Positions 3,206 to 20,300 of a DNA stretch of 64,000 nt are shown one piece after another. How positions within the stretch are numbered: the first letter of the stretch is position 1; each line of letters starts with the position of its first letter. The position numbers were made by a program, and so were the translations under genes. Source of the stretch: a virus; IMG/VR virus record IMGVR_UViG_3300042864_001285, one strand, 5' to 3'. The notes beneath the pieces were generated by a model, which searched no databases, was not told where the DNA came from, and was given only the letters and a program-made list of their open reading frames with translations.

Positions 3206-3361
3206 GGGGTCCGGAGAAAATCCGAGAGGAGAAGAAAACTTGAAAATGTGCTTCCGGCCCCAGAAAATAAATTTAGGGAAAAAAGAGTTTGGGCCATAGC
3301 ACAAAATTACTTACATAGTATTACCTTTAAGGTACAGTGGTCCAGATTTTTAAGCAGGCGC

Positions 3362-3385
3362 CAAGCCAAAAAAAGGACGCCGAAG
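3362..3385 (-). terminator. rho-independent terminator closing the minus-strand operon
   Basis: On the minus strand, a hairpin agggcgc-ttcg-gcgtcct is followed by a TTTTTTT run. Confidence 0.45.
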
Positions 3386-3402
3386 CGCCCTTCCCACCAA
3401 CT

Positions 3403-3528: not shown

Positions 3529-3750
3529 TTACTTGTTTGCGTTAATGTAAACCAAGGTACTCATAACCTCTTTTTTAGCCTTGGGGCTGAGGTGGCAGAG
3601 TGTACCAATGAGACCCTCAAGGTAGCCAACGGTGTAAGAGTTGGCGGCGTGGAGTTCCTCGCCACGGGCGAATTGGCGGTCCTGAATGGCAGCCACCAGT
3701 GCCTTGGCCAAGTCTTGATTTGTCATTTTGTTTCCTTTCAAATTCAACAT
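3529..3750 (-). CDS. hypothetical protein, candidate leaderless start
   Basis: The ATG lies 7 nt downstream of the minus-strand -10 CATAAT. An alternative internal start at 3726 has the SD AAGGAAA. Confidence 0.4.
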   Translation of the reverse strand: MLNLKGNKMTNQDLAKALVAAIQDRQFARGEELHAANSYTVGYLEGLIGTLCHLSPKAKKEVMSTLVYINANK

Positions 3751-4057: not shown

Positions 4058-4807
4058 TTAAACGGATGCCATCATAATGGCGGGATACTTTACAAAACCA
4101 GTGGTATCTTTTTTGGCTTTGCCTTTGGCATATAAGCCGATAACGGAGCCTTTTGGATCCAGAAAACGGAGGTCCGACTCATCGCCATTAAATACTGGCA
4201 TACTCAGATAATCAGCCGGCATTGGGAGGGTCTTTTTAATACCAAACACCACGGCTACATTATAACCTTGGGCAATAGCCTTTTCAACGTCCGAATCATT
4301 ACCATCGGCGGCTGAGAATGTCAGGTGATAATTGGGATAATCGGCAATTTTACGTCCGAGAATCTTGGTATAATCGTAGAATTGAATTTCAGGGAATGCC
4401 ATGAAAATGTTTTTATATTCCACGCCATTACGGATGGCGGCATACTTTTCAAAGGCTAGGTCCGAAGTGCCATTAAGGCGAATCACTGGAACCATATTGA
4501 TTTTAGCCGATTGTTTAATAGCCAATTCAATATCCTTGACCAGCCATTCCATAAAACCGGTGCGAGCCTCGAAAAACATTTGGGTTTTGCGGATTCGAGC
4601 CTGCTGGATAATGTTGGTGGTTTCACCTTTTTTGAACATACCGCCACGGCCAGCAAGGTTCAGGCAGGCAGCCGTGCAACCTTTGGTCCGTTTGGCGCAG
4701 GTCTCAAAACCGGACAGGTCGGCTGGAGCGAGGTGCAGGATGTAGGTATTGTAACCCTGAGCCAGGCCTTTGAGGACCTTAGGGTTACCAGTGGAGAGTA
4801 AATTCAT
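4058..4807 (-). CDS. hypothetical protein with N-terminal Cys cluster (C-x6-GC-x3-C)
   Basis: The 249-aa ORF in the GC-rich island has an AAAGG SD. It is driven by the minus promoter at 4838-4865. Confidence 0.6.
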   Translation of the reverse strand: MNLLSTGNPKVLKGLAQGYNTYILHLAPADLSGFETCAKRTKGCTAACLNLAGRGGMFKKGETTNIIQQARIRKTQMFFEARTGFMEWLVKDIELAIKQSAKINMVPVIRLNGTSDLAFEKYAAIRNGVEYKNIFMAFPEIQFYDYTKILGRKIADYPNYHLTFSAADGNDSDVEKAIAQGYNVAVVFGIKKTLPMPADYLSMPVFNGDESDLRFLDPKGSVIGLYAKGKAKKDTTGFVKYPAIMMASV

Positions 4808-4837
4808 TTTTTGACCTTTGCTTGATTTGATGGTTGG

Positions 4838-4865
4838 ATTATACCAGAACCAGAGGAAATGGCAA
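4838..4865 (-). promoter_or_regulatory. sigma70-like promoter TTGCCA-N16-TATAAT (minus strand)
   Basis: The reverse complement reads ttgccatttcctctggttctggtataat. Confidence 0.55.
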
Positions 4866-4897
4866 CCATCCGTGGAATAGTTGACCGGCTGGCTGGG

Positions 4898-5140
4898 TTA
4901 TTGTACGCCATGATACCGCAGGAGGGACCGACCTTGGTACCGTACATGGGAGAGGAGCCGCCCACCCATTACATTTTCAGGTCGGACCAAGCCTTGGGAA
5001 GGATGCAACCAAAGCACCGTTCCATCGGCATACACCTGGAAAATAGCCTCTTGACCATGGTACACCTCGGCGTAGAATCCGCCACGGGCTTTCCGGAGGT
5101 AGGAGCGGCAGTGCCGGAGGACTATATGGGGCTGGTACAT
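4898..5140 (-). CDS. small basic protein (80 aa)
   Basis: It lies about 24 nt downstream of the minus promoter at 5172-5199, with AAAAGG before the ATG. Confidence 0.3.
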   Translation of the reverse strand: MYQPHIVLRHCRSYLRKARGGFYAEVYHGQEAIFQVYADGTVLWLHPSQGLVRPENVMGGRLLSHVRYQGRSLLRYHGVQ

Positions 5141-5171
5141 TTTGCAACCTTTTCAATTTACTATGGAATGG

Positions 5172-5199
5172 ATTGTACCAGAACCAGCGAGAATGGCAA
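5172..5199 (-). promoter_or_regulatory. sigma70-like promoter TTGCCA-N16-TACAAT (minus strand)
   Basis: The reverse complement reads ttgccattctcgctggttctggtacaat, nearly identical to the copy at 5436-5463. Confidence 0.55.
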
Positions 5200-5214
5200 C
5201 CATCCTTTGGATAC

Positions 5215-5231
5215 TTGACCGGATTGGTCAA
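5215..5231. promoter_or_regulatory. palindrome TTGACC-N5-GGTCAA (operator-like)
   Basis: This is a perfect 6-5-6 inverted repeat. The same motif recurs at 6197-6213 and 6565-6581. Confidence 0.4.
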
Positions 5232-5428
5232 CCTTTGGCATGGGAGAGACCAACATTCCGAAGGGTGGCAGCCTTGGCTCCAAGGTTGGCGACCGAATAC
5301 TTGGCACCAGCCGACCAAGTCCGTTCCGACCTACGGGGGCGGGCAGGCTTGCAAATGGTAACCAATACACCGTCCAGCAGGTATTGGGCTTGGACCTTGC
5401 GGTCGGTTGGTTGAATTGATTTTATCAT
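5228..5428 (-). CDS. small protein (about 66 aa), candidate leaderless
   Basis: The ATG is exactly 7 nt (CCATTCC) after the minus-strand -10 TACAAT. Confidence 0.3.
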   Translation of the reverse strand: MIKSIQPTDRKVQAQYLLDGVLVTICKPARPRRSERTWSAGAKYSVANLGAKAATLRNVGLSHAKG

Positions 5429-5435
5429 GGAATGG

Positions 5436-5463
5436 ATTGTACCAGAACCAGCGAGAATGGCAA
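5436..5463 (-). promoter_or_regulatory. sigma70-like promoter TTGCCA-N16-TACAAT (minus strand)
   Basis: It is a near-duplicate of the 5172-5199 element and is divergent to the plus promoter at 5505-5532. Confidence 0.55.
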
Positions 5464-5504
5464 CCAATAGTTGACCGGAAGAATGGAGAACTATTGTGCT
5501 ATAT

Positions 5505-5532
5505 TGCCATTCTGGCCTGCTATGATATAATA
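5505..5532 (+). promoter_or_regulatory. sigma70-like promoter TTGCCA-N16-TATAAT
   Basis: The sequence reads ttgccattctggcctgctatgatataat and lies upstream of the 5563 gene. Confidence 0.55.
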
Positions 5533-5562
5533 ACATCATTGTAAACGAAACGAAAGTGAAAA

Positions 5563-5799
5563 ATGAAAGTAGTACAAACGTATTCAAGTGTGGAATGTAA
5601 TGAGTATTCTGTATTCAATTCTGACAATGTTCAGGTTGCATACTATATTGAACACTATGTTCACCCAATTGATGAAGAAGTATTAGAAACCCCGGTCTTC
5701 GAGATATATTATGATTACAATGAAGAAGACGATGAATACGAAAGTTCTCTTATTTCTGAGAATTTTGACGATATTCAGGAAATAATCGATTCGTTCTAA
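5563..5799 (+). CDS. very acidic small protein (78 aa, D/E/Y-rich)
   Basis: It follows its own promoter, then a terminator-like hairpin. Confidence 0.5.
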   Translation: MKVVQTYSSVECNEYSVFNSDNVQVAYYIEHYVHPIDEEVLETPVFEIYYDYNEEDDEYESSLISENFDDIQEIIDSF

Positions 5800-5805
5800 T
5801 CTAAT

Positions 5806-5826
5806 AACCCAGCAACGGGCTGGGTT
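5806..5826 (+). terminator. stem-loop aacccagc-aacg-gctgggtt fused to the next promoter (PeSL-like)
   Basis: An 8-bp stem sits immediately 5-prime of TTGCCT-N16-TATAAT. Confidence 0.4.
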
Positions 5827-5831
5827 ATCTC

Positions 5832-5859
5832 TTGCCTTCCCTGCTGGTTCTGGTATAAT
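5832..5859 (+). promoter_or_regulatory. sigma70-like promoter TTGCCT-N16-TATAAT
   Basis: The sequence reads ttgccttccctgctggttctggtataat. Confidence 0.5.
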
Positions 5860-5952
5860 TGGTACCATGATTCGAAGCGGAAGGCGGGGTGGACGTGGAG
5901 GCTGGGCGTCATAATAATAACCCAGCACTCCGGTCAAGTATATCCAAAATGG

Positions 5953-5980
5953 TTGCCAAACCTGCTGGAACCTGTAGAAT
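5953..5980 (+). promoter_or_regulatory. sigma70-like promoter TTGCCA-N16-TAGAAT
   Basis: An ATG follows 7 nt after the -10. Confidence 0.5.
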
Positions 5981-5987
5981 CCAAGAC

Positions 5988-6200
5988 ATGATGAACACAA
6001 AAACCTACACTGTAGAACACCACGACAAAACCATGGACTTCCATGTGATCCGCTGGTCCCCATTGTCCAACGGTGTCCACACTGGCGAGTCCGTAGAACG
6101 GTTCCAATGTGAGGATGAGGCCATGGAAGTGGCTCGAATCCTGAACCAAGCCGAGGAACTGAGCCTGTACCTGGACCAGTCCTGCGAATTTGATAGTTGA
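5988..6200 (+). CDS. small protein (70 aa), candidate leaderless
   Basis: The ATG lies 7 nt after TAGAAT with no SD. Its stop overlaps the TTGACC palindrome. Confidence 0.4.
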   Translation: MMNTKTYTVEHHDKTMDFHVIRWSPLSNGVHTGESVERFQCEDEAMEVARILNQAEELSLYLDQSCEFDS

Positions 6201-6220
6201 CCATTCCGGTCAAGTATTGG

Positions 6221-6248
6221 TTGACAATACTACCGGAACCTGTATAAT
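6221..6248 (+). promoter_or_regulatory. consensus sigma70 promoter TTGACA-N16-TATAAT
   Basis: Both hexamers are perfect. It is preceded by the palindrome TTGACC-attcc-GGTCAA at 6197-6213. Confidence 0.65.
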
Positions 6249-6280
6249 CCAATCCATATTGTGAAAGAAAAGGAAAGAAA

Positions 6281-6568
6281 ATGTCCCGTTTAATATCTGA
6301 GCGCACCGCCCATGCATGGTTTGATGAGATGCTGGACGACTGTGAAGGTCCGGTGGAACTGTGCGGAATGACCTATTCCGCTTCCGAGGTCCTGCGTGAG
6401 GTCGACCCGGTAGCCTATCGGTGCGGTTTTAACGACTACGTGGATTCCTTGACCGAGGAAGACGTTTTCGTGGAAGGTCTCACCGAGGATGAGATGGAGA
6501 CCGAGGATGAGGATGACGGTCAGCCGGACGAAGCCCAAGAGTGGGCGGATTTTGATGCTGATTGTTGA
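6281..6568 (+). CDS. highly acidic small protein (95 aa; C-terminal EDEMETEDEDDGQPDEAQEWADFDADC)
   Basis: It has an AAAGGAAAG SD and sits directly behind a consensus promoter. Confidence 0.55.
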   Translation: MSRLISERTAHAWFDEMLDDCEGPVELCGMTYSASEVLREVDPVAYRCGFNDYVDSLTEEDVFVEGLTEDEMETEDEDDGQPDEAQEWADFDADC

Positions 6569-6588
6569 CCTGTCCGGTCAAGTATTGG

Positions 6589-6617
6589 TTGCCAGAACCT
6601 GCTGGTTCTGGTATAAT
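6589..6617 (+). promoter_or_regulatory. sigma70-like promoter TTGCCA-N17-TATAAT
   Basis: It is preceded by the palindrome TTGACC-tgtcc-GGTCAA at 6565-6581. Confidence 0.55.
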
Positions 6618-6688
6618 CGATACCATATTCAAAAGCACCTCTCCCGGTGGTGTTTTTCAACATGGTATTGCAATTGAAAGGAAAATTA

Positions 6689-7569
6689 TGATTGAAGTGA
6701 AGTTTGTCGGTGGTAAATACGTTGCCAACATCAATGGCAAGGTGGTCAAGCGTGCCAAAAAGGAACACATGGACTATGTGATCCGCAAGGCTACAGGTGC
6801 CACCGGTGGTGCTCCTGTCAATGTCAAGGAGTCCCGCTTCACCATCAACCAGCGGTTCGGCTTTGTCTCCGACATGGTCGCCATGTTGGTGAAAGGTGAC
6901 CAGTCCTCGGTGGTTGTATCTGGTCCCGGTGGTCTCGGCAAGTCCCATACCGTCACCAAGGCACTGAATGATGCCGGCATGAAGGATGTCACCCTCCTGG
7001 ATGAATTCGAGGTCGGTGGCAAAATCAACACCACCAAGTCCTACCGTGTTATCAAGGGCTACTCCACTCCAAAGGGCCTGTACCGTACACTGTATGAAAA
7101 CAAGGACGGCGTGGTTGTTTTTGACGACTGCGACTCGGTGCTGAAGGATCCAGTGTCTCTGAACCTGCTCAAAGGTGCTCTGGACTCCTACTCCCGCCGT
7201 GTCATCTCATGGCGTGCCGACATGAAGGATGACGAACTCCCACAATCCTTTGAATTCAAAGGCCGGGTGGTGTTTATCTCTAACCTGTCCTCTGATTCGA
7301 TGGACCAAGCCATCATCACCCGTTCGATGGCTGTTGACCTGACAATGACAACGGAGCAAAAAGTGGAGCGTATGCGCCACCTGGTGTCCCTCCCAGAGTT
7401 TATGCCTGAGTATTCGAAGACAGAAAAGTCCGATGCACTGGACCTGATTGACAACCTCCAAGATGAGGTGAAAGAGTTGTCACTCCGTACACTCATCCAG
7501 ACCACTAAAATCCGCAAGTCTGCTGGTGCCAAGTGGAAAGACCTTGCAGAATACACCATCTGCGGTTGA
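6689..7569 (+). CDS. P-loop NTPase / AAA-type ATPase
   Basis: It has Walker A GPGGLGKSHT, Walker B VVVFDDCD and the SD GAAAGGAAAA. Its own sequence is GC-rich. Confidence 0.65.
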
Positions 7570-7590
7570 TTTTTACTATAAAGGAATGAT

Positions 7591-7723
7591 TATGACAAAC
7601 ACTCAAGCATTTGGTTGGAAGTATATGGTGAATTGGTTGGCTCGGAGAGAGCATAAAATTCCTGATATTACATTCACCGCCCGCACCACACACAAAATGA
7701 AAGCGACTAATGAGCAAATTTAA
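7591..7723 (+). CDS. small hypothetical protein (44 aa)
   Basis: An AAAGGA SD precedes the ATG. Confidence 0.25.
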
Positions 7724-7931
7724 AGACTTGATTATCGATATCGAATCGTGCATCACCAATGGTGATACGTTTGAGGACATTATTCAATTCGTTATGACCT
7801 CCACTGGATGTGACGAAAAGACAGCCACGGACCTGGTGTTCGAGGTCGAGGGCAACCTGTGCATGGAGGAGGAACGGAACTATTATGAGGACCAAATAGT
7901 GCTGATTGAAGGATTCTCCGAAGAGGAGTGA
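7710..7931 (+). CDS. small acidic hypothetical protein (73 aa)
   Basis: The ORF is co-oriented with its neighbours. Confidence 0.35.
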   Translation: MSKFKDLIIDIESCITNGDTFEDIIQFVMTSTGCDEKTATDLVFEVEGNLCMEEERNYYEDQIVLIEGFSEEE

Positions 7932-7947
7932 TGTTGCGTAGATGAGA

Positions 7948-7986
7948 CACCTGGTGGTTGCCAGGTGGTCTTTTTTAGAGTACAAT
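7948..7986 (+). promoter_or_regulatory. PeSL-like unit: terminator hairpin cacctgg-tggttg-ccaggtg + T6, with the -35 TTGCCA embedded in the hairpin and -10 TACAAT
   Basis: Stem-loop, T-run and TTGCCA-N17-TACAAT overlap. No ORF follows for about 400 nt. Confidence 0.5.
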
Positions 7987-8295
7987 GGATCCATTGGTTC
8001 GAACAGCAAGACTGGGGGTGGACGTAGAGGCTGCCTGATGGTTTTCCAATGGGCATCCAGCACCACTCTGAGACATTCTGAGACCCACACAGAGCAAAAC
8101 ATTCCAAACCGTGCTGGAACCCACTGGAACCCATTGGAACGTGCGGAAACGTGCTGTCACCTCTGAGACACTCTGTGAAATTTTCAGGCGTTGGCAGCCA
8201 GCAACTAAGACTAAATAGCAACCCAACACTTCCGACACACCGCGACACATCCAGCGACCTACTGACTGACTGGTCAGTTATTAAGGTCCTCAAAG

Positions 8296-8338
8296 ATATC
8301 CACAACTTATCCACAACTTATCCACACACTTATCCACA
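8296..8338 (+). repeat. four direct DnaA-box-like 9-mers (ATATCCACA, TTATCCACA x3) phased 11-12 bp apart
   Basis: Three exact matches to TTATCCACA begin at 8307, 8318 and 8330, and a one-mismatch copy begins at 8296. Confidence 0.6.
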
Positions 8339-8381
8339 GTCTCTTTTATACAACAGACGAAGTTTTCCGCAAAATATTCCA

Positions 8382-8409
8382 TTGCCATTCCTACCAGTAC
8401 CGCTATAAT
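8382..8409 (+). promoter_or_regulatory. sigma70-like promoter TTGCCA-N16-TATAAT
   Basis: An ATG follows 7 nt (ACCATCC) after the -10. Confidence 0.55.
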
Positions 8410-8416
8410 ACCATCC

Positions 8417-8659
8417 ATGACACAAACAAACACACCCAAACAATTCATTCAAGTCTCCGCACATAAGGACTCCAATAACTTTGCTCACTGGAGCAACCTG
8501 AGCCTAATGGCAAGCATGGGTCTGAATGCTGAACAAGCCCTCCGCCGTCTCCAGGCTATGGCTGATAACTATGCACTGAACGGATACACCATCGAATGGA
8601 TTCGGAATGATTTTGATTCGTTTGATGAAGAAATGTATGGAGATTTATTCAATGTATAA
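8417..8659 (+). CDS. hypothetical protein (80 aa), candidate leaderless
   Basis: It follows the promoter directly. From here onward the sequence is AT-rich. Confidence 0.5.
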   Translation: MTQTNTPKQFIQVSAHKDSNNFAHWSNLSLMASMGLNAEQALRRLQAMADNYALNGYTIEWIRNDFDSFDEEMYGDLFNV

Positions 8660-8867
8660 AGTTTCAAAACAAAACTATTTTCCCACTCTGAATTCTGCAT
8701 TAGAATCAGAAGGATTATTGGAATCTTGGGAACTTAACTTCCCTCCGCTCTCTTACGATTCTTCTTTCTCATATACTTTTGATGATGGTTCAAAGCACGG
8801 TCATTATGTTTCTCTCTATCGGGATTCTGATGGTCGTTATGAGCGCCCTGTTCATTATAAGCGGTAA
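8652..8867 (+). CDS. hypothetical protein (about 71 aa)
   Basis: The ATG overlaps the upstream stop. Confidence 0.35.
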   Translation: MYKVSKQNYFPTLNSALESEGLLESWELNFPPLSYDSSFSYTFDDGSKHGHYVSLYRDSDGRYERPVHYKR

Positions 8868-8870
8868 TTA

Positions 8871-9002
8871 TGTTTGATTTTTTTGGCTTTATACTTAATA
8901 TACTTAAAGCGGTTTTCATTTTTCTTTTTGTATTCATGTGGACAATCTTTATAATTCCCATATTTTACCATTTATTCAAATTCTTATTTCTCAATACTTG
9001 AC
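8871..9002 (+). CDS. 43-aa hydrophobic peptide (MFDFFGFILNILKAVFIFLFVFMWTIFIIPIFYHLFKFLFLNT)
   Basis: It overlaps the upstream stop by TAATTATG and is predicted to have 2 TM helices. It is not in the ORF track. Confidence 0.3.
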
Positions 9003-9030
9003 CGGACGGATGGAGAACTTTTCTAGTAGG

Positions 9031-9058
9031 TTGCCATTCTCTACGGAACCTGTATAAT
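9031..9058 (+). promoter_or_regulatory. sigma70-like promoter TTGCCA-N16-TATAAT
   Basis: TTGACCGG occurs at 8998-9005, just upstream. Confidence 0.55.
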
Positions 9059-9090
9059 TCTCTCTATTGAAACACAACAAGGACTTTTTT

Positions 9091-9258
9091 ATGAAACAAT
9101 ACTCTGTTTATTTTGACGGTTCATTCATTGAAGCTACTGGTTATTTTGAATCAGTTTCCAAGGTTCGTGCATTCTTGAAACTCCGTTATTCTAATACTAA
9201 CGGAATGACATTTCAAGCGGTTTATCCTGCTCTTGAACAAACTGTTTATGAGGTTTAA
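9091..9258 (+). CDS. hypothetical protein (55 aa)
   Basis: The SD ACAAGGAC precedes the ATG. Confidence 0.4.
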   Translation: MKQYSVYFDGSFIEATGYFESVSKVRAFLKLRYSNTNGMTFQAVYPALEQTVYEV

Positions 9259-9259
9259 T

Positions 9260-9454
9260 ATGAAAATTACTACTGCGATTTCTATCCTCGAAAAGGAACG
9301 GAACTTTCTCTCTATTGGTTTTCTTGAAGTCTTACAGGACATTCAGAAACATGGTCGTATGGTCTATTCTGAAAAGACTATGGAAGCGTTTTCTGTCTTT
9401 ATGGACGAAGGTGCTAAACTCTTTGCAACCGTTGATGAAAATGAGGAAGAATAA
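9260..9454 (+). CDS. hypothetical protein (64 aa)
   Basis: It overlaps the upstream gene by TAATATGA. Confidence 0.4.
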   Translation: MKITTAISILEKERNFLSIGFLEVLQDIQKHGRMVYSEKTMEAFSVFMDEGAKLFATVDENEEE

Positions 9455-9586
9455 TGTTTGTTATATCTGAAAAATTTGGTTTTCTCTATGAAGTATTCTA
9501 TTCTGGTACTTTTCTTGAAGCATTCTATACTCTCTCTGATGCTGAAGAATATGTAAACTTCACTAAATTTGAAATGGAGAATTATT

Positions 9587-9808
9587 ATGGCGCATGAAGT
9601 TTTCCGTTTCTGGTCACGGAGAGATACTGCCGCAGTGTTCACTAACATACCAGTTCATCTCCTGGATGAGTTTCGGTCCTATTACCCCGGTAAATACAAA
9701 ATCCGTTACCGTGGTCCACGTTCCCATCGGAGGAATGATTCTTGGATGAACCGTGCATCATATTGTCTCATGAAGGATGCAAAAACATTCTCGGCTTACC
9801 GTTATTAA
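9587..9808 (+). CDS. small basic protein (73 aa)
   Basis: The ATG follows an AT-rich leader. Confidence 0.35.
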   Translation: MAHEVFRFWSRRDTAAVFTNIPVHLLDEFRSYYPGKYKIRYRGPRSHRRNDSWMNRASYCLMKDAKTFSAYRY

Positions 9809-9823
9809 TAGGAGTATATAAAA

Positions 9824-10017
9824 TGAACGAACGAATTCTAGAACTTGCTGATAAGGCTGTTGAAGACATGCCCTCTGGTCCTTGGAACATTCCTGATGAA
9901 TTTTGCAAAAAATTCGCCGAGTTGATTGTTCGGGAATGTGTCAATGTTGTTAGTAAAGCAACTGCTAGTCCAACTGGATATCAGGCTCTTATGAAACATT
10001 TTGGAGTTGAAGAATGA
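9824..10017 (+). CDS. hypothetical protein, paralog A
   Basis: It has an AGGAG SD. The FAELIVRE...KHFGVEE pattern is shared with the next gene. Confidence 0.45.
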
Positions 10018-10244
10018 ATGAAATAATGAAAGAACTTTCAAATATTGCATACATGAACCACATGGAGAGGAATCCACATTCTTCTTTTGGTCGCCGATAC
10101 GATTATGATAAAGAGTTCGCCGAGTTAATTCTCAAAGAAACTATCTCCGTCCTACAAAAACGGTTCATGGGTGATTTGAACCGTGAGGACATGGAAGTCC
10201 GTAGGTGTATTGCAGACGTAAAAAAACATTTTGGGATTGAATGA
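10014..10244 (+). CDS. hypothetical protein, paralog B
   Basis: It overlaps the upstream gene by ATGA. The FAELILKE...KHFGIE pattern matches the upstream gene. Confidence 0.45.
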   Translation: MNEIMKELSNIAYMNHMERNPHSSFGRRYDYDKEFAELILKETISVLQKRFMGDLNREDMEVRRCIADVKKHFGIE

Positions 10245-10408
10245 TGGACGAACAAACTAAAGAATATTTTGATTATCTCGTTGCACTACGGGATTCTGGT
10301 GCCACCAATATGTGGGGTGCGGCACCGTATCTGGAAACTGAATTCGGTATTTCTCGCACCGAAGCTAGGAAGGTTCTGGTTGCATGGATTGAATCATTCA
10401 ATAAATGA
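10241..10408 (+). CDS. hypothetical protein (55 aa; YLVALRDSGATNMWGAAPYL motif)
   Basis: It overlaps the upstream gene by ATGA and is not in the ORF track. I preferred it over the antisense ORF 10273..10458. Confidence 0.35.
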   Translation: MMDEQTKEYFDYLVALRDSGATNMWGAAPYLETEFGISRTEARKVLVAWIESFNK

Positions 10409-10423
10409 GAACTTCTAGCTGAC

Positions 10424-10452
10424 TTGCCAAGTACCAAGGACTCTGGTACAAT
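10424..10452 (+). promoter_or_regulatory. sigma70-like promoter TTGCCA-N17-TACAAT
   Basis: The sequence reads ttgccaagtaccaaggactctggtacaat. Confidence 0.5.
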
Positions 10453-10482
10453 AGACACACAAACACTTGAAAAGGAAATCTC

Positions 10483-10893
10483 ATGGGTACACGTTCACTC
10501 ACTTTTGTTTATACCGACCATTATGGCTCTACCACTGGTCCTGAGCCTATTATCAATATGTACCGCCAGTTTGACGGCTACCCAACTGGTCATGGCTCCG
10601 AACTATCCGCATTCTTGAATCAGTTTGAAGCCATCACCAATGGTATTCCTGTTGGTGATACACGGAAACTGGCTAATGGCATGGGTTGCTTAGCCGCCCA
10701 ATTGGTAGCACATTTTAAAGTTGGTGCTGGTGGTTTCTATCTCTACCCAGTTTCATCCGATGATTGTGGTCAAGAATATGAATACCACATTTACTCCGAC
10801 CGTATCACCGTTTTTGGTTGGGAACGTGAGCACCTGTTTACTGGTCCATGGGTTCAATTCACTAAATTTTGCACTGAAAAGGAGAATGCATAA
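10483..10893 (+). CDS. hypothetical protein (136 aa)
   Basis: The SD AAAAGGAAA precedes the ATG. Confidence 0.5.
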   Translation: MGTRSLTFVYTDHYGSTTGPEPIINMYRQFDGYPTGHGSELSAFLNQFEAITNGIPVGDTRKLANGMGCLAAQLVAHFKVGAGGFYLYPVSSDDCGQEYEYHIYSDRITVFGWEREHLFTGPWVQFTKFCTEKENA

Positions 10894-11123
10894 TGCCGTA
10901 CGTAAACACCTATGTTGATTCTGAGGATATTCTTGATGAACTCTCTGATGATGAACTTATTACCGAACTGGAAAAACGGGGTAAGGACTATAATCTAAAT
11001 TTTGTTGATGGTGATAAAATGAAAGAGGTTCTCCAGTCACTCTATGAAAAGCGTAGGATTGGTAACGATTATCAATCTGAACTAGACCAATTGATTTACG
11101 GCATTCTCGGTAAAGTTATTTAA
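10893..11123 (+). CDS. hypothetical acidic protein (76 aa)
   Basis: It overlaps the upstream gene by TAATG. Confidence 0.45.
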   Translation: MPYVNTYVDSEDILDELSDDELITELEKRGKDYNLNFVDGDKMKEVLQSLYEKRRIGNDYQSELDQLIYGILGKVI

Positions 11124-11134
11124 AGGAGTATATT

Positions 11135-11554
11135 ATGGATGATTTTGATTTTGAAGATGGTCCGATTGTCATTTCATATGATAATGTGATGAGGGCGAAG
11201 GACTTTCTACCCATTACCCGTACACTGGCAATGGACCTCTCTGAGTCTGGTTATATTCGACCAGGTGATTTTCTAAAGGCACTCACGGATTCGGATGTAG
11301 ATGCACTTCTAAAAATTGCCGATAATGAGGAAAACCCACGCCTTTCGGAAATTCTATTGATTTCGGAGATGCTAGCCACCGGTGAAGGCCTCGAACAATC
11401 ACAAGACTCCGATGGGATTACACTCCGTATGAATTCATTCTGTGGTTTCCTTGCTATTGAAGGACTCTCCCGTAAAGGGTTAGTGAAGGTTTACCATGAG
11501 AATATCTCATTTGGCGAAGATTTTGGAAATAAAATTATTGTGGAAAAACTATGA
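11135..11554 (+). CDS. hypothetical protein (139 aa)
   Basis: The SD AGGAG precedes the ATG. Confidence 0.5.
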   Translation: MDDFDFEDGPIVISYDNVMRAKDFLPITRTLAMDLSESGYIRPGDFLKALTDSDVDALLKIADNEENPRLSEILLISEMLATGEGLEQSQDSDGITLRMNSFCGFLAIEGLSRKGLVKVYHENISFGEDFGNKIIVEKL

Positions 11555-11781
11555 CTGTACCTGTAGAACGTACTAGTGCGGTGATTCGAACTGAAAAGTT
11601 TCTTATCTCACTACTTGATCCAAAGAAAACACCACGTGTGCCTCTATCCGTTCGGAGGGATGCAAAGTCACTGCTCCGTCATTATCCATCGGAGTTTGAT
11701 ATGAATACGATTGCCGACCGTGAGGATGGTGTTGGTAACAAGATGTGTATTCACAAGATTTTTGGTAAGGATTATAAATGA
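11551..11781 (+). CDS. hypothetical protein (76 aa)
   Basis: It overlaps the upstream gene by ATGA. Confidence 0.45.
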   Translation: MTVPVERTSAVIRTEKFLISLLDPKKTPRVPLSVRRDAKSLLRHYPSEFDMNTIADREDGVGNKMCIHKIFGKDYK

Positions 11782-12215
11782 GATTTTTTCTTGATACTGA
11801 ATTTAATGGCTTTGGTGGTAAACTAATGTCGATGGCTCTGGTGCCAGAGAATGATTCTAAACCCGAATTCTATGTGGAACTGGAGATGAATGACCAGCTG
11901 GACCCATGGGTGCGCGAGAATGTGGTGCCTCACCTTTTTCAGCCTCCGGTTACTCGGCAAGAGTTTCAACTCTCATTCTCAAGGTACCTCCTGAATATTG
12001 AATATGACGAAATCATAATCGTTGCAGATTGGCCAGATGATATTCGATATTTCTGTGAAGCAATGATTACAGGTCCCGGTGAGAGAATTGTAATGCCAAC
12101 GAATATTAAGTTTGAACTCAACTTTAGTATTGAGTATGAATCATTGGTGCCACATAATGCACTTCATGATGCAAGAGCGATTCGTGATTCTTATATGAAA
12201 AGAGAATATAAATGA
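11778..12215 (+). CDS. DEDD-type 3-prime to 5-prime exonuclease (Rv2179c-like small exoribonuclease family)
   Basis: The N-terminus MRFFLDTEFNG carries the Exo I D-x-E motif. HNALHDA near the C-terminus is the H-x4-D motif. Confidence 0.55.
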   Translation: MRFFLDTEFNGFGGKLMSMALVPENDSKPEFYVELEMNDQLDPWVRENVVPHLFQPPVTRQEFQLSFSRYLLNIEYDEIIIVADWPDDIRYFCEAMITGPGERIVMPTNIKFELNFSIEYESLVPHNALHDARAIRDSYMKREYK

Positions 12216-12553
12216 GCCTTGATGTAAATTTGATGGTGGTGCAACCGGTGTCGATTTATTACAATAATATCACACACAATCTAGGTAAAATGGCCGGAGA
12301 GGTTAAACTCTCAAATGGCCTGTCACTGTATGATGTGATGTGGCGACCTGATGAGCACTCCTTGAAGTTTGCGAAAGATATATCCGAACTCCTGGATGAA
12401 GGATGGAATATTCTGCTATCTGACCCGGAACATTTTAAGACCTTTAACCCTGAGAATGGTTGGGGTTCATATGATGGTCTTCAGAATTTTGTATACAAGT
12501 ATCGTAATGCATGTTTCGATAATCCTGATGCTGAACTGAGTATATCAAGATGA
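12212..12553 (+). CDS. hypothetical protein (113 aa)
   Basis: It overlaps the upstream gene by ATGA. Confidence 0.45.
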   Translation: MSLDVNLMVVQPVSIYYNNITHNLGKMAGEVKLSNGLSLYDVMWRPDEHSLKFAKDISELLDEGWNILLSDPEHFKTFNPENGWGSYDGLQNFVYKYRNACFDNPDAELSISR

Positions 12554-13023
12554 ACAAAAAACCTAAACTATACATGCTGGTCGGTGTACCAGGTTCTGGA
12601 AAGTCCACTTGGGTGAAGAACCAAGAGTTTTGGATGAAAGATTGTGCGTACATTTCCACCGACAAGTATGTGGAAGAATGGGCTGAAAGTGTTGGTAAAA
12701 CCTATACCGAAGTGTTTGAAGAATACATGCCCGTAGCCGTTACAAGGATGGCAGGTGCCGTGAATGCCGCACGTGATGTGGGAAAGGACATTATCTGGGA
12801 CCAAACCTCTACCACTATTGCCACAAGGGCGAAGAAATTCCGAATGCTCCCGGAATATTATGCGATTGCTGTGGTTTTTCGGATCCCAGAGCCGGAAGAA
12901 CTCCAGAAAAGGCTTGCCAGCCGACCTGGAAAAGTGATACCATCGGAGGTACTACAATCTATGATTGATAGGTGGGAAGAACCCACATTGGAAGAAGGCT
13001 TTAATGAAATTTGGAGAACATAA
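12550..13023 (+). CDS. P-loop kinase resembling the N-terminal 5-prime kinase domain of T4 polynucleotide kinase (no phosphatase domain)
   Basis: Walker A VGVPGSGKST is present. The segment KVIPSEVLQSMIDRWEEP parallels T4 Pnk KAVPIDVLRSMYKSMRE (recalled). Confidence 0.5.
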   Translation: MNKKPKLYMLVGVPGSGKSTWVKNQEFWMKDCAYISTDKYVEEWAESVGKTYTEVFEEYMPVAVTRMAGAVNAARDVGKDIIWDQTSTTIATRAKKFRMLPEYYAIAVVFRIPEPEELQKRLASRPGKVIPSEVLQSMIDRWEEPTLEEGFNEIWRT

Positions 13024-13217
13024 TGACAGAAAAACTTGAAATTGATTGTGAAACGGCTGACCGTATTACTTTGTTGGCACTCAAAGACCACAGAAAATAC
13101 CTTAAAAAGGAATTGAAACGCCACAGGAAGGGTGAATGGTTGCATCCAGAGGATGTTGTGTACAATACACAATTACTTGAAGCACTGGATGTTATTATTG
13201 ATTATTATGGTGGTTAA
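13023..13217 (+). CDS. hypothetical protein (about 64 aa)
   Basis: It overlaps the upstream gene by TAATG. Confidence 0.4.
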   Translation: MTEKLEIDCETADRITLLALKDHRKYLKKELKRHRKGEWLHPEDVVYNTQLLEALDVIIDYYGG

Positions 13218-13418
13218 ATGAAAGAGCCAATCGTAAAATCTGATATCAATCGACACCTTCATGCCATGCTAGGCCGTTCCGAACTGGTTGATGGATGGTG
13301 GGATTCACCAAACAAGGCATTTGATGGTAAAACACCTAATGAGGTGTACCAAACTGGTGCGGAAGGTCGGCTGAGTGTTTATCAATACGTGATTGGTTGT
13401 TCCGATGAGCATTGGTGA
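13218..13418 (+). CDS. DUF2384-like (Xre/MbcA/ParS antitoxin toxin-binding domain) orphan protein
   Basis: GWWDSPNKAFDGKTPNEVYQTGAEGRLSVYQYVIG matches the W..PN.aLgG.TP.e...t..G...V...L..i..G signature as I remember it. Confidence 0.45.
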   Translation: MKEPIVKSDINRHLHAMLGRSELVDGWWDSPNKAFDGKTPNEVYQTGAEGRLSVYQYVIGCSDEHW

Positions 13419-13490
13419 AATGTTGTAAAAAAACAACAAAAGGCAATCTTTATGGTTGCCTTTTTTTTATATATGGTATATAATAGAGTT
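13419..13490 (+). repeat. PeSL-like cassette, copy 1 (two hairpins + T-run + TTGCCT-N17-TATAAT)
   Basis: The hairpin aaaggcaa-tctttatgg-ttgccttt is followed by T8, then TATAAT at 13479-13484. It is nearly identical to the copy at 14895-14975. Confidence 0.65.
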
Positions 13491-13509
13491 TTCAATAATT
13501 GGACCTAAA

Positions 13510-14895
13510 ATGGCAAAACAACATAGTGTAACAGTAGCGTTGAATCGTACAATGAAACTTATTTCCACCAATATGCGGTATTTTAGGGAAAGAGTTGCTC
13601 TTGATACATCTTTTCAATCTGAAAGTCGATGGGAAGAAAAACAAGCCACAGCATATATGACCTCACTTATTACTGGTATGGCACCATCAAAAATTGTTGT
13701 TGCTAATATCAAAGAGTGTATGGACAAATGCATGGTAGAATCAAAAGATTATGAATACTACAATGATTGGCTTCAAAAAGGTTTTGAATGGATTTCCATT
13801 GACGGAAATAACCGTACTATCACAATCGACCAATATCTGAATGGTTCTGTTAAATTAAAGCATGGTCAATATCCATTGCCCAATGGTGTCGTTGATATCA
13901 ATGATAAGAATGACACATACAAAAAGCATCCAAAAATTCTTTTAGATTTTATTGAAAGTAGTGTCGAGATTACTGTTGCTGAGTATGTTTCTGCCACACG
14001 TAATGATTTGTCCAATATTTTCATTAACGTGAATGATGGTGTTTCACTGAATGCACAAGAATTACGTAATGCACGTTTGGTGCCATTTGCTGGTTGGGTG
14101 CGTGACACTGTAAAGAAACATAAGAATGAATTCCGTAAAGTATTTACCACGGAAAAACAAGAGAAGCGCCGATTGATTGACGATTTTGTTGTTGGTCTTG
14201 CCATCTATTCTTCTTTTGGTGCTGAACATGGTGTTGCAAAATCTGATAAAGATAATGCATATGAAGATGATTCTGTTGTATCAAAACAAACTAAGAATGC
14301 AAGTTCTAGTATTGATTCGATGTGCAAGATTGTCAAGAAACATGCAACAACTGGATTTAAAGACCATTCGACAATGTTGAATTTCTATATGGTGATTGAT
14401 TATCTCCGTAAAAACAATTTTGGTATTATCGATGACGCAAAACTATTTCAATGGTTTATGCGTACAGAGAATCGCCGCCTTGGAAGTAAAAAGATTCTGG
14501 TAGAATCTCCAAAATCAGGTGAACTCCGTACATATGCATCATGTTGCAATACAATGTCAAAGTTAGAATTAACGGCACGTTATAAAGCCATTATGGAAGA
14601 CTTTGAAATTATTGAAAGCGGTATCGTAGCACAACGGGACTCTGAACGCCTTTTCACACCACAACAAAGGTATGAAGCATGGGCACGCCAAGCTGGTGTA
14701 TGTCCAATAACTGGTGAACATATTCCAGAGGAGGAAATTAACGACCATGAAAAATGGGCGGCAGACCACATTGTTCCACACACCTTTGGTGGTCCATCCA
14801 AAGGTACCGATGGTACAAATAACTGCCAATTGGTTGCGAAGTCTGCCAATCTTAAAAAAGGTAGTAAAATGACACTCGGAGAAGTTCTGGTCTAA
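13510..14895 (+). CDS. DUF262 (ParB/GmrS-like NTPase) + C-terminal HNH/His-Me nuclease fusion; GmrSD-family-like or free-standing HNH endonuclease
   Basis: IDGNNRT matches the DGQQR DUF262 motif. The C-terminus CPITGEH...DHIVPHTFGG...NCQLVAKSANLKKG is an HNH pattern. I placed the start at the ATG at 13510, downstream of the promoter, rather than at 13456. Confidence 0.6.
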   Translation: MAKQHSVTVALNRTMKLISTNMRYFRERVALDTSFQSESRWEEKQATAYMTSLITGMAPSKIVVANIKECMDKCMVESKDYEYYNDWLQKGFEWISIDGNNRTITIDQYLNGSVKLKHGQYPLPNGVVDINDKNDTYKKHPKILLDFIESSVEITVAEYVSATRNDLSNIFINVNDGVSLNAQELRNARLVPFAGWVRDTVKKHKNEFRKVFTTEKQEKRRLIDDFVVGLAIYSSFGAEHGVAKSDKDNAYEDDSVVSKQTKNASSSIDSMCKIVKKHATTGFKDHSTMLNFYMVIDYLRKNNFGIIDDAKLFQWFMRTENRRLGSKKILVESPKSGELRTYASCCNTMSKLELTARYKAIMEDFEIIESGIVAQRDSERLFTPQQRYEAWARQAGVCPITGEHIPEEEINDHEKWAADHIVPHTFGGPSKGTDGTNNCQLVAKSANLKKGSKMTLGEVLV

Positions 14896-14975
14896 GTGTT
14901 GTACCAAAACAACAAAGGCAATCTTTATGGTTGCCTTTTTTTTGGTTTCTGGTATAATAGAGTCTTATTCAATGT
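14895..14975 (+). repeat. PeSL-like cassette, copy 2 (direct repeat of 13419-13490)
   Basis: The hairpin aaaggcaa-tctttatgg-ttgccttt is followed by a T-run, then TTGCCT-N16-TATAAT at 14931-14958. Confidence 0.65.
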
Positions 14976-14987
14976 GAAAGGCATGTA

Positions 14988-15239
14988 ATGCGTACAAAAC
15001 AACTGATTTGGGGTCTGAATAACACTCAGAAGTTCCGTGCTATCGTGAATGGTGTTGGCTTCATTATGAAGGTGAAAGACCTTGAAGATAAATTTGTGTT
15101 CACCACACAGAGGGTTGCAGTATGGAATGCATTGGCAACCTGTGCAAGAGAAAACGTTAGTGGTTTTGGTACCACATACACCTACTATGATGAAAAGATG
15201 GTGGCCACTAAGGTGGATATACAGGTGAACCTTCTTTGA
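14988..15239 (+). CDS. hypothetical protein (83 aa)
   Basis: It lies downstream of the copy-2 promoter. Confidence 0.45.
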   Translation: MRTKQLIWGLNNTQKFRAIVNGVGFIMKVKDLEDKFVFTTQRVAVWNALATCARENVSGFGTTYTYYDEKMVATKVDIQVNLL

Positions 15240-15347
15240 AGGATGGACATACCTACTTATGCAACAAACAAGAATGGAAAGAGGTTAATATGGATATAAA
15301 CTGGTACATGATTGTTGTCTCCATGCAACATGTCTACCAAAAAATGG

Positions 15348-15376
15348 TTGCCATCTGGCAAAAACTGTGATATAAT
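15348..15376 (+). promoter_or_regulatory. sigma70-like promoter TTGCCA-N17-TATAAT
   Basis: It shares the ggttgcc and tataataga motifs with the PeSL copies. Confidence 0.5.
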
Positions 15377-15390
15377 AGAAACACCTTGTT

Positions 15391-16554
15391 ATGGAGAACT
15401 TTATGAATCGTAATGCAAAAGCATTCGTCCAAGCCGCATCTGAGATTTTCGGTGAGAATGCAATTTTGAGCCGTGACCAAATTCAACGTGTCGTTGATGA
15501 ACGGTCTGTTCCTTATCCCTTCTGGTTTGTCACTCGCCAAGAGTTTCGTTCTGGTCGTGGCCAATACCTTCTTCCTAATGCACCAAACGCCGTGTCATGT
15601 GATGTTGCAGTTGAAGAACCTGCCGTTGTCGAATTGACACAAACTGCCACTGTCCATGTTCTCCGTCAAAAGAAACTTGAAGACCATGCAGATACTTCTA
15701 TCCCTGAAAAATACCAAGGCTATGTCCCCTTTGGTTTCTACAAAGACCTGACCTCCATTGTACTCTCACAGGAATTCTTCCCTGTGTTCATTACTGGTAT
15801 GTCTGGTAATGGTAAGACACTCATGGTTGAACAAGTGTGTGCCACACTCAAACGTGAATGTATCCGTGTGAACATCTCCGTTGAGACTGATGAATCTGAC
15901 CTGATTGGTGGTCCAACACTTATCGATGGTAACGTGGTGTACCGTGATGGTCCTGTGATGACTGCCATGAAACGTGGTGCAATTCTCTTGATTGACGAAG
16001 TTGACCGTGGTTCAAACAAACTGATGTGCCTTCAAGGTATTCTTGAAGGCAAACCTTACTTCAACAAAAAGTCTGGTGAATACATCTATCCAAAACGTGG
16101 CTTCAACGTTGTTGCAACTGCTAACACCAAAGGCCGTGGCTCTGAAGAGGGTCGTTACCTGTCACAGATTCTTGATGATGCGTTCCTTGAGCGTTTCAAC
16201 ATCACCGTTGAACAGGAATATCCTGAAGCCAAGGTTGAACTCAAGATTCTCAAACCATTGTTGAATGATGATGAGTTTGCCGAGAACCTTGTGAAGTGGG
16301 CTGACGTTATTCGTAAAACATTCGCCGAAGGTGGTGTTGATGAGATTGTCTCCACTCGCCGTTTGGTACACATTGCAAAGACTTATTCAATCTTCAAAGA
16401 CCGTTCGAAGGCAATTCAACTCTGTGTGAATCGTTTTGACCAAGAAACCAAAGATTCGTTCCTTGACCTGTACTCGAAAGTTGATATCAAAGTGGCGGAG
16501 GCAAACACTGCACCTGTGATGCCGACCTCACCTGATGATGAAGTGCCATTCTAA
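15391..16554 (+). CDS. cobS: CobS-like MoxR/AAA_5 ATPase
   Basis: Walker A GMSGNGKT and Walker B LLIDEVD sit within an AAA_5-like core. The length is 387 aa, typical of phage cobS. Confidence 0.6.
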   Translation: MENFMNRNAKAFVQAASEIFGENAILSRDQIQRVVDERSVPYPFWFVTRQEFRSGRGQYLLPNAPNAVSCDVAVEEPAVVELTQTATVHVLRQKKLEDHADTSIPEKYQGYVPFGFYKDLTSIVLSQEFFPVFITGMSGNGKTLMVEQVCATLKRECIRVNISVETDESDLIGGPTLIDGNVVYRDGPVMTAMKRGAILLIDEVDRGSNKLMCLQGILEGKPYFNKKSGEYIYPKRGFNVVATANTKGRGSEEGRYLSQILDDAFLERFNITVEQEYPEAKVELKILKPLLNDDEFAENLVKWADVIRKTFAEGGVDEIVSTRRLVHIAKTYSIFKDRSKAIQLCVNRFDQETKDSFLDLYSKVDIKVAEANTAPVMPTSPDDEVPF

Positions 16555-16570
16555 ACTGTGGTATTTTTCC

Positions 16571-16609
16571 AACAGAGTGGTTGCCACCAGACTGTCACTC
16601 TGTTACAAT
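16571..16609 (+). promoter_or_regulatory. PeSL-like: hairpin aacagagtg...cactctgtt with TTGCCA in the loop, then TACAAT
   Basis: A 9-bp stem encloses TTGCCA-N17-TACAAT. Confidence 0.45.
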
Positions 16610-16643
16610 TGAATCTGGTAAACTTTTTCTCAAAGGATATATT

Positions 16644-16961
16644 ATGCGTACTACCACTAAAATCAACCGTCACGAAAAAATTGCTTGCGTTATGCTCTCT
16701 GGCAAGCCTGTCTCTCCCGCTGAGATTGAGGCTTGCTTCAAAGGCAGTGACCAAGAAGGTGTTCTCTATCGCCTCTCCACAAACATCTACAACATCCGCA
16801 AAGATGGTGGAATTGTCCGTGTTTACAAAGATGGTCGAAAAGTGACTGCATATCAGTTGGTAAACTTTGACGAATTCTCTCCTGAAGGTCGTTATATCGG
16901 TAAAACTAAAACCGCACAAGTTGCCGTACAAGTAACCGAACAAGTTGCTGAGACTGTGTAA
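16644..16961 (+). CDS. hypothetical protein (105 aa)
   Basis: The SD AAAGGA precedes the ATG. Confidence 0.45.
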   Translation: MRTTTKINRHEKIACVMLSGKPVSPAEIEACFKGSDQEGVLYRLSTNIYNIRKDGGIVRVYKDGRKVTAYQLVNFDEFSPEGRYIGKTKTAQVAVQVTEQVAETV

Positions 16962-17745: not shown

Positions 17746-17754
17746 AGGATTATT

Positions 17755-20295: not shown

Positions 20296-20300
20296 CCTAG

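Follow-up and report, generated by a model that had tools for sequence, protein, structure and literature searches.

A conserved non-coding locus with a DnaA-box array and a promoter-proximal RNA motif in the early region of an uncultured T4-like phage lineage

Why would a T4-like phage keep a row of consensus DnaA boxes within some 430 nt of DNA that appears to encode no protein? The question is raised by positions 7987-8416 of a 64-kb stretch of DNA from an uncultured T4-like myovirus (IMG/VR record IMGVR_UViG_3300042864_001285), analysed here in full and referred to below as the window. Phages of the T4 type are not known to depend on host DnaA for replication or early transcription, and a literature search found no paper linking DnaA boxes to T4-like phages. 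Sequence comparison shows 7987-8416 to be a genuine locus of this T4-like lineage, non-coding, conserved and situated in the early (hyperplastic) region, and its boxes strongly suggest a selected binding site for host DnaA. What is apparently new is this DnaA-box array variant in a T4-like phage, together with an RNA motif that seems to be undescribed. A conserved array would mean that abundant environmental phages read, use or neutralise the replication-initiation signal of their hosts.

The locus lies between two early promoters, P1 and P2, which read in the same direction (coordinates of all features are given in Table 1). Both belong to a sigma-70-type promoter family, TTGCCA-N16/17-TAYAAT, with 12 exact-pattern copies placed between small early genes at 4838-20394, and both are conserved in all aligned relatives. 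P1 is overlapped by a hairpin (7948-7967) which, with its T-run, is predicted to be the intrinsic terminator of a 73-aa gene at 7710-7931. PeSL elements are strong early promoters fused to a stem-loop terminator, found in intergenic positions of the hyperplastic region (PMC2839356), and 7948-7986 shows the promoter, the hairpin and the mosaic surroundings that define them. No intrinsic terminator was found between P1 and P2.

The stretch shows no sign of a hidden protein gene. Its four open reading frames (ORFs) of 74-143 aa match no Pfam or PHROG family, and their substitutions in comparison with five relatives are flat over the codon positions (22/25/26, 28/29/31 and 35/37/42), whereas the flanking genes show a third-position excess in the same comparison (10/3/25 and 22/17/35). 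Furthermore, the small ORFs after P1, and those after a second copy of the RNA motif described below, shift frame between relatives. The stretch contains short repeats: CTGGAACCCA occurs 2.7 times at 8114-8140, and exact CTCTGAGAC is found only twice in the 64 kb, at 8066 and 8161, the copy at 8076 having one mismatch.

The array itself consists of four DnaA boxes (consensus TTATCCACA, TTWTNCACA) at 8296-8338, all on the plus strand. The first box (ATATCCACA, starting at 8296) has one mismatch and those starting at 8307, 8318 and 8330 are exact; start-to-start distances are 11, 11 and 12, with spacers of 2, 2 and 3 bp, and Tandem Repeats Finder (TRF) calls the array an 11-bp tandem repeat. The 64 kb contain just one further exact DnaA box, on the minus strand at 28639. 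At least four same-strand boxes with no more than one mismatch within 45 bp were seen in none of 300 Markov-1 simulated windows, and at least three in one of the 300. In E. coli, the boxes that DnaA prefers in vivo come in like-oriented pairs with 2-3 bp between them, and such pairs mostly mark regulated genes (PMC11317965). The array has exactly this pair spacing and orientation, preferred for cooperative binding, and the 2-3 bp distance holds throughout the relatives too. P1 lies some 300 nt before the array, and P2 follows 43 bp after it. Hence much of what the initial annotation had described is borne out, namely a PeSL promoter at 7948-7986 firing into a stretch without a credible ORF, iteron-like repeats (their 10-11 bp period is present in all relatives), three exact boxes and one single-mismatch box in a single orientation at 11-12 bp phasing, and a second promoter at the end.

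Relatives of the locus were gathered via the neighbouring ATPase, DNA patterns, a metagenome scan and exact-protein look-ups, and were then aligned (individual sequences are given L numbers). The modules follow one another in the order PeSL with P1 (in all relatives), the 7998-8033 block, a body, the 8161-8258 block, the 8259-8381 cassette, and P2 with a leaderless-looking start. The cassette has a sharp left boundary formed by GCGACACATCCAGCGAC, and similarity to L118 and L120 ends exactly at 8258. The metagenome scan used this left-boundary 17-mer, a pattern too short for that database, and 2 of its 120 matches were real relatives.

The DnaA-box form of the cassette is found in the window, L119, L120/L135, L122/L121/L207, L123, L191 and L248, and in L128 in another gene context. 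Eight distinct relatives carry two to five boxes, which without exception lie on the sense strand and are separated by 2-3 bp. The boxes have kept their sequence, whereas the spacers differ in theirs (ac, gc, gt, gg, ag) and the flanking DNA has diverged, which argues that the boxes are under selection as boxes. Exact first boxes are often followed, towards P2, by degenerate boxes that remain in phase (TTCTCAACA, TTCTCCACA, TTATTCACA, TTACTCACA and TTATCAACA). Collectively these data strongly suggest that the boxes are a selected binding site for host DnaA, and we expect with some confidence that host DnaA binds the array.

In a second form of the cassette (L118, L188, L189 and L190) there are no boxes. 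In their place are three to four copies of the 14-bp CACTACCTATAGTG, an inverted repeat of the form CACTA-N4-TAGTG, within flanks that are about 95% identical to those of the window. Since the box cassette has been replaced in these sister phages, DnaA is not indispensable to the locus. The exchange suggests that the cassette is an exchangeable protein-binding module, and on this comparison the locus can work, or work differently, with another DNA-binding protein. The box/palindrome allelic swap provides a natural experiment on the function of the module. As for a gene that co-varies with the cassette type, the short flanks available yielded an L118-specific 148-aa ORF without obvious DNA-binding character, and this candidate was rejected.

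Arrays of this kind recur in at least one further uncultured lineage. L161, a separate T4-like contig with an endonuclease V gene, has the promoter and the RNA motif, followed about 55 nt later by three DnaA-box pairs with 2-bp spacers in sense orientation. This arrangement implies that a promoter, a motif RNA and sense double boxes persisted or arose in two lineages. In L033 (11122-11141; similarly in L001, L060, L069 and L080) an exact box pair with a 2-bp spacer lies beside a very AT-rich stretch, in the short intergenic gap that precedes a gene for a CobS-like AAA ATPase. In IMG/VR, the exact 20-mer formed by two boxes and an AC spacer was found in 117 contigs, and 110 of these arrays are non-coding. 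A similar cluster is present in an isolate, Vibrio phage CZ01 (L186, Straboviridae, PV740454.1), as an unannotated 370-bp intergenic region at 19.3-19.67 kb. It has about seven DnaA-like boxes in one orientation (TTATCCAC, AATCCACA, TTATCCACA, TTTATCCACA, TTATGCACA, TTATCCACA and TTACCCACA), antisense to the flanking small early genes. As a separate observation, a small hairpin of the form GTTGT-(T-rich loop)-ACAAC, which the window lacks, lies downstream of the boxes, ahead of P2, in L122 (~7965-7985), L248 and L191, and also follows the RNA motif in the unrelated L147.

The second conserved element is promoter-proximal. RNA starting at P1 would carry a motif in the order TTCGAA, a covarying hairpin and GGGGTGGACGTRGAGGCTG; this copy, termed copy B, is 36 nt long, begins about 11 nt after the P1 -10 and is nearly invariant even in the most distant relatives. 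A paralogous copy A elsewhere in the window has no DnaA boxes after it, the next promoter following about 50 nt further on. Both copies are present in L119 (copy A at ~4950-5000) and L122 (copy A at ~4690-4740), giving two motif copies per genome. The hairpin is flush with TTCGAA and with the G-rich core in every instance, and 16 of 17 distinct linkers can form a stem of at least 2 bp, with seven different stem sequences (GC/GC, CAG/CTG, GGA/TCC, AG/CT, CT/AG, CA/TG and CAGT/ACTG). The stems total 40 bp, compared with 7.7 +/- 3.0 (maximum 19) in 5000 shuffles. Such covariation indicates that the hairpin part is a structured RNA or a single-strand element.

The motif extends well beyond this lineage. 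Its exact core GGTGGACGTRGAGGCTG was found in 25 IMG/VR contigs, and in about 12 contigs with no other DNA similarity to the window the motif is placed 7-11 nt after a TATAAT -10 (L137, L139, L147, L151-L155, L160 and L161, plus L164 and L175 from a second pattern search). In L151, L155 and L160 an intrinsic terminator with TTGACA in its loop follows at about 80-130 nt from the motif start, so that the motif heads a small RNA; L175 has two motif copies in tandem. Reading frames across the motif instances are not conserved. Rfam 15 gave no relevant match at E<=10 for 7940-8430, at E<=1 for 5000-12000, or in six foreign motif loci, ARAGORN found no tRNA or tmRNA, and the motif 22-mer had no match among the genomes of 185,579 species of bacteria and archaea, each represented by a single genome. 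We therefore regard the motif as a candidate new phage RNA family or element, apparently undescribed. Ideas drawn from known systems (tmRNA-like RNA, hammerhead or HDV ribozyme, ops/RfaH, HK022 put, 6S RNA, CRISPR-repeat mimic) were dropped for want of a test or a fit. With two copies per genome, a presence in unrelated phages and no Rfam counterpart, the motif is an element whose function is directly testable.

What, then, might the array do? The reading we favour, tentatively, is that of a DnaA-loaded block or operator acting on transcription from P1 and P2. The array would be a loading pad for an oligomer of host DnaA, which would stall or terminate RNA polymerase arriving from P1, thereby giving a non-coding RNA its 3' end and insulating P2. 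DnaA could also extend over the weaker in-phase boxes towards P2 and tune that promoter, so that early expression would be coupled to the level of host DnaA (ATP-DnaA), and in phages with the palindrome cassette another DNA-binding protein would take this role. We favour this reading because of the preferred box geometry, the terminator-free path of the transcript, the position upstream of P2 and the weaker boxes that lead towards it. Furthermore, the boxes of L161 start about 55 nt after the motif, and in other phages a terminator ends a short motif RNA somewhat further downstream. The swap of the cassette for a palindromic, operator-like repeat fits a protein block or operator better than a helicase-loading origin, and the lack of an unwinding element, the GC-richer region and the non-initiator neighbours were likewise counted in favour of a block or operator over an origin.

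There is a precedent for such a role, since a complex of DnaA with its box can reportedly block transcribing RNA polymerase at asnC, to go by the title of work by Schaefer and Messer from 1988. The double-box sites of E. coli (dnaA, nrd, purH and the asnC terminator) resemble the array in having pairs of consensus 9-mers 2-3 bp apart, in one orientation, in promoter-adjacent non-coding DNA (PMC11317965), and DnaA bound to such sites can stop RNA polymerase. They differ in that the present array is in a lytic T4-like phage and comprises four boxes (up to five to seven in relatives), to which DnaA is predicted to bind; moreover, the non-coding stretch around it is itself transcribed, and a different repeat cassette can take its place.

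Several points weigh against a block or operator. The DnaA-box preference of the host may differ, and all functional steps are inferred. The four to seven strong boxes exceed typical promoter operators, and the distance between array and P2 ranges from about 43 to 100 bp among the phages, which gives no fixed activator or repressor geometry; P2 nearly matches the consensus and requires no activator in any case. In E. coli, DnaA is described as a partial roadblock. The box cluster of Vibrio phage CZ01 is antisense to the genes around it. Finally, the reading leaves the 10-11 bp periodic repeats of the body (CTGGAAC and others), which look iteron-like, unexplained.

Those repeats would find a place if the locus were an origin that co-opts host DnaA, primed by transcription as in T4 oriE or ColE1; this is the main rival, which we rate as somewhat less likely. 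RNA from P1 (or P2) would serve as R-loop or primer, its structured G-rich part priming or nucleating the R-loop, while a DnaA oligomer would open 8339-8381 or load a helicase on the displaced strand; the CTGGAAC-type repeats would be iterons and the cassette would be exchangeable. If true, the T4 superfamily would gain its first origin that depends on DnaA, with a natural swap of origin specificity. By analogy with R1 of E. coli oriC, the orientation of the boxes would place unwinding on the 8339-8381 side, where the AT content is locally highest, and the G-rich motif immediately behind P1 could seed an RNA-DNA hybrid. The plasticity that T4 origins are known to show between relatives would tolerate a cassette swap. 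The layout of an early promoter, evenly phased short repeats and then the DnaA-box array recalls oriE, T4 oriE being likewise dependent on an early promoter and having evenly spaced 12-nt repeats whose role is unproven (PMC3016281). However, oriE has no DnaA boxes, T4 is not known to use DnaA in replication, and there is no sequence or positional homology between oriE and the present locus; what the two share is that each belongs to a T4-type phage and combines, in conserved non-coding DNA, an early promoter with short direct repeats at even spacing.

The composition of the DNA speaks against an origin. No AT-rich unwinding element was found in the region, which has an AT fraction of 0.519 versus 0.606 for the whole window; its most AT-rich 40 bp (8344-8383, AT 0.70) reach only the 83rd percentile and its least stable 30-mer the 86th. 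T4 oriF-type origins require an unwinding element downstream of the promoter (PMC3016281), whereas 7991-8070, following P1, contains the G-rich motif and has an AT fraction of 0.42-0.45, unlike the R-loop unwinding elements of T4 oriF and oriG. Under the DnaA-trio rule (at least three NAN triplets, on the correct strand and no more than 16 bp from a box; PMC8287927) the window falls short with a run of only two. The relatives, with NAN runs of three to six, formally pass the rule in its very permissive box-spacer-(NAN)x3 form, a point in favour of an origin. Downstream of the motif the RNA is C/A-rich (GC skew -0.26), which is unfavourable for a long R-loop, and no switch in skew, strand bias or gene orientation occurs at the locus. 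The boxes are, moreover, swapped for a palindrome array in the sister phages.

Nor do the genes around the locus point to replication, as no replication initiator or helicase loader was found among the neighbours (a NrdC.10-like ATPase, small ORFans and a GP88-family protein). Iteron origins have iterons of 17-22 bp and a cognate Rep gene; the repeats here are 7-10 bp long, with no Rep or initiator gene beside them. ColE1/pBR322 and iteron-plasmid origins (RK2, F, P1 and pSC101) are alike in their upstream promoter-driven RNA, their downstream DnaA boxes in one orientation and their short phased repeats, but the present locus lacks a Rep gene, 17-22-bp iterons and AT-rich 13-mers, and apart from the box repeat it has no similarity to plasmids. 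The general idea that tandem boxes of viral contigs mark origins was also rejected, because the neighbours of such boxes are heterogeneous (terminase, CobS-like ATPase and others). Hence, of the origin-like architecture proposed in the initial annotation, the promoters, boxes and repeats stand, whereas the AT-rich unwinding element does not, the window shows no trio pattern and no initiator lies nearby; an origin is possible and is not the best supported reading. The annotation had also traced the region to a plasmid or other replicon because of its GC content. The locus does lie in a GC-rich island (~4500-8500), but the only plasmid match is 40 nt of the box repeat in a Clostridium plasmid, and by sequence similarity the block is part of a large T4-like phage clade, which leaves such a source unsupported.

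If neither transcription control nor replication were the purpose, the RNA itself could be the product, and this we think unlikely. P1 would then make a non-coding RNA of about 300-400 nt, or a long 5' leader of the 80-aa gene behind P2, in which CUGGAAC, GCGGAAAC and CUCUGAGAC bind or sponge a protein, the DnaA boxes being incidental or acting at the RNA level. The conserved 5' motif with its covarying hairpin and the lack of a terminator before P2 are consistent with this. So are the GGA-containing units, which are repeated four to five times in all close relatives, and the A/C-rich P1 RNA strand, predicted to be weakly structured (whole-RNA fold z = -1.3). The body of the window can form an imperfect long hairpin (8044-8053 with 8130-8139, and 8056-8063 with 8111-8118), but no conserved fold of 8040-8260 was found: the RNAalifold covariation term is +0.51, and single folds of the diverged relatives L119 and L122 are no better than shuffles (z -0.3 and -0.8). 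The repeat period is kept while the units change identity between relatives (CTGGAAC/GTGCTG in most, CTGTGGT in L122). Furthermore, the 9-mers are exactly the DnaA DNA consensus and the cassette alternates with a DNA palindrome, which argues for a role at the DNA level.

The initial annotation had also offered that the region might titrate or recruit host DnaA. Recruitment survives best, given the conservation of the boxes. Titration would make the array a decoy which, carried on replicating phage DNA, soaks up DnaA or alters its nucleotide state (datA-like) and so shuts down host oriC. Tandem, consensus and optimally spaced boxes would suit a decoy, and phage DNA is generally known to reach a high copy number. 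However, simple titration does not require the conserved position and orientation relative to P1 and P2, sister phages have no boxes at all, and T4-like phages usually stop host replication by other means, so we rate a decoy as improbable. It is most unlikely that the stretch has no dedicated function and is PeSL-recombination debris of the hyperplastic region with boxes that are a slipped 11-bp tandem repeat, for although the region is mosaic between relatives and bounded by PeSL-type promoters, and TRF reports such a repeat, the unit is the exact DnaA consensus, the boxes are kept in eight relatives and an independent lineage despite diverged spacers and flanks, and 430 nt of non-coding DNA have been retained in an otherwise densely coding phage.

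DnaA boxes are also known in plasmid and lambdoid contexts. Among virulent phages, the injection-stop (iss) region of T5, compared here by its published description, is likewise non-coding, large and conserved, and contains repeats, palindromes and about eight DnaA boxes in pairs 3 bp apart; its function is hypothetical, and the boxes were themselves proposed there as a hypothesis (bioRxiv 10.1101/866236). In T5 the box pairs are inverted repeats within the terminal repeat, whereas in the present locus one head-to-tail array lies between a pair of early promoters, in a T4-type genome that is circularly permuted. The PeSL cassettes of RB49 and phi1 share with it a stem-loop terminator overlapping a strong sigma-70-type early promoter, and cassettes are exchanged at such elements (PMC2839356). 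They normally precede an ORFan with a Shine-Dalgarno sequence, whereas here the element precedes 430 nt of non-coding DNA with an RNA motif.

Table 1. Features of the locus, of its surroundings in the window and of the palindrome form in relatives.
Feature	Position	Strand	Description
Terminator-like hairpin	7948-7977	+	CACCTGGTGGTTGCCAGGTG and T-run; 8 pairs, 5 of them GC; stem-loop part of the PeSL cassette; kept in all relatives
Early promoter P1	7958-7986	+	TTGCCA(7958)-17-TACAAT(7986); -35 in the hairpin loop and 3' arm
5' RNA motif, copy B	7998-8033	+	TTCGAA (7998-8003), hairpin CAG(caaga)CTG (8004-8014), invariant core GGGGTGGACGTAGAGGCTG (8015-8033)
Variable body	8044-8160	+	short repeats of 10-11 bp period: CTGGAAC (two copies), TTGGAAC, GCGGAAAC, GTGCTG
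Direct repeats	8066-8178	+	CTCTGAGAC(A); copies at 8066, 8076 and 8161
Conserved non-coding block	8161-8258	+	includes ACTAAGACTAAATAG (8204-8218) and GCGACACATCCAGCGAC (8242-8258)
Exchangeable cassette	8259-8381	+	palindrome CTGACTGGTCAG (8266-8277), DnaA-box array, spacer
DnaA-box array, head-to-tail	8296-8338	+	ATATCCACA ac TTATCCACA ac TTATCCACA cac TTATCCACA; sense relative to P1 and P2
Weak DnaA-like site	8363-8371	+	TTTTCCGCA, 2 mismatches; between array and P2 -35
Early promoter P2	8382-8409	+	TTGCCA(8382)-16-TATAAT(8409); 11/12 match
80-aa gene	8417-8659	+	first gene served by P2; coding substitution pattern
Paralogous RNA motif, copy A	5832-5904	+	promoter TTGCCT-16-TATAAT (5832-5859), TTCGAA (5871-5876), hairpin GC(ggaag)GC (5877-5885), core GGGGTGGACGTGGAGGCTG (5886-5904)
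Palindrome cassettes (relatives)	L118 ~1660-1810; L188 ~3280-3400; L189 ~2800-2920; L190 ~2470-2580		copies spaced 23-32 bp
AAA+ ATPase (phrog_1250)	6562-7569		homologue of T4 NrdC.10; >6000 metagenomic relatives
GP88-family protein (PF17338)	4058-4807	-	Cys-x6-Cys-x3-Cys cluster; ~3 kb upstream of the locus

Among the proteins encoded in the window are a baseplate wedge protein, a tail tube cap protein and proteins resembling CobS and endonuclease VII. Its tail protein has at most 28% identity to that of any isolate, mostly cyanophages, pelagiphages and other 'far-T4' phages, and at the DNA level the window matches phage isolates nowhere except in 137 nt of cobS. The first 20 kb or so consist of small genes, mostly on the plus strand, of the early/hyperplastic type. 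Fragments of the 8161-8258 block recur in the more distant L153, L164 and L128.

The ATPase gene adjoining the locus corresponds to nrdC.10 of T4. The AlphaFold model of its product (pLDDT 93) is matched best by dynein AAA, CbbQ/NorQ, Vps4, RuvB, RFC and ORC, with TM values of at most 0.51; given such generic AAA+ matches and the homology to T4 NrdC.10, a role as initiator or helicase loader was rejected. Long fusion homologues of the ATPase had no informative domains. The GP88-family protein looks like a TIM-barrel or radical-SAM-like enzyme, on a low-confidence structural model. The two genes are adjacent in L161 (7964-9585), and in the window about 1.8 kb separates them; both pairs lie next to the motif/box locus.

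The ATG of the 80-aa gene is located 7 nt after the P2 -10, so that the P2 mRNA is probably leaderless. An ATG exactly 7 nt after the -10 with no Shine-Dalgarno sequence, often as TAYAAT-nCCATyCC-ATG, is seen in the window at 8409-8419, 5980-5990, 5436-5426 (minus strand) and 5859-5869, as well as in L128 (~3590-3605) and L154. This pattern suggests that several early genes of the phage clade are translated from leaderless mRNAs. Other genes of the window, for example the one at 6281, have a long AAAGGAAAG leader.

Elsewhere in the window, a 479-aa ORF at 13456-14895 with an endonuclease VII-like C-terminus is not present in the close relative L118/L157 and is probably a mobile nuclease gene. 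Within a 637-aa minus-strand ORF (31086-32999) that has no PHROG match, a 39/78-nt tandem repeat (GCATCTTTGGCTTTCTTGGC...) occupies 32044-32327. Further tandem repeats lie in and around large ORFs at 58470-63636, which probably encode tail-fibre-type repeat proteins. They comprise 33-nt and 114-nt repeats at 58747-60238, a 51-nt unit repeated 28 times at 62205-63636, and an 18/36-nt unit, ATTGGACCACAAGGACCT, repeated 33 times at 61498-62117, which would be Gly-Pro-rich and collagen-like if translated.

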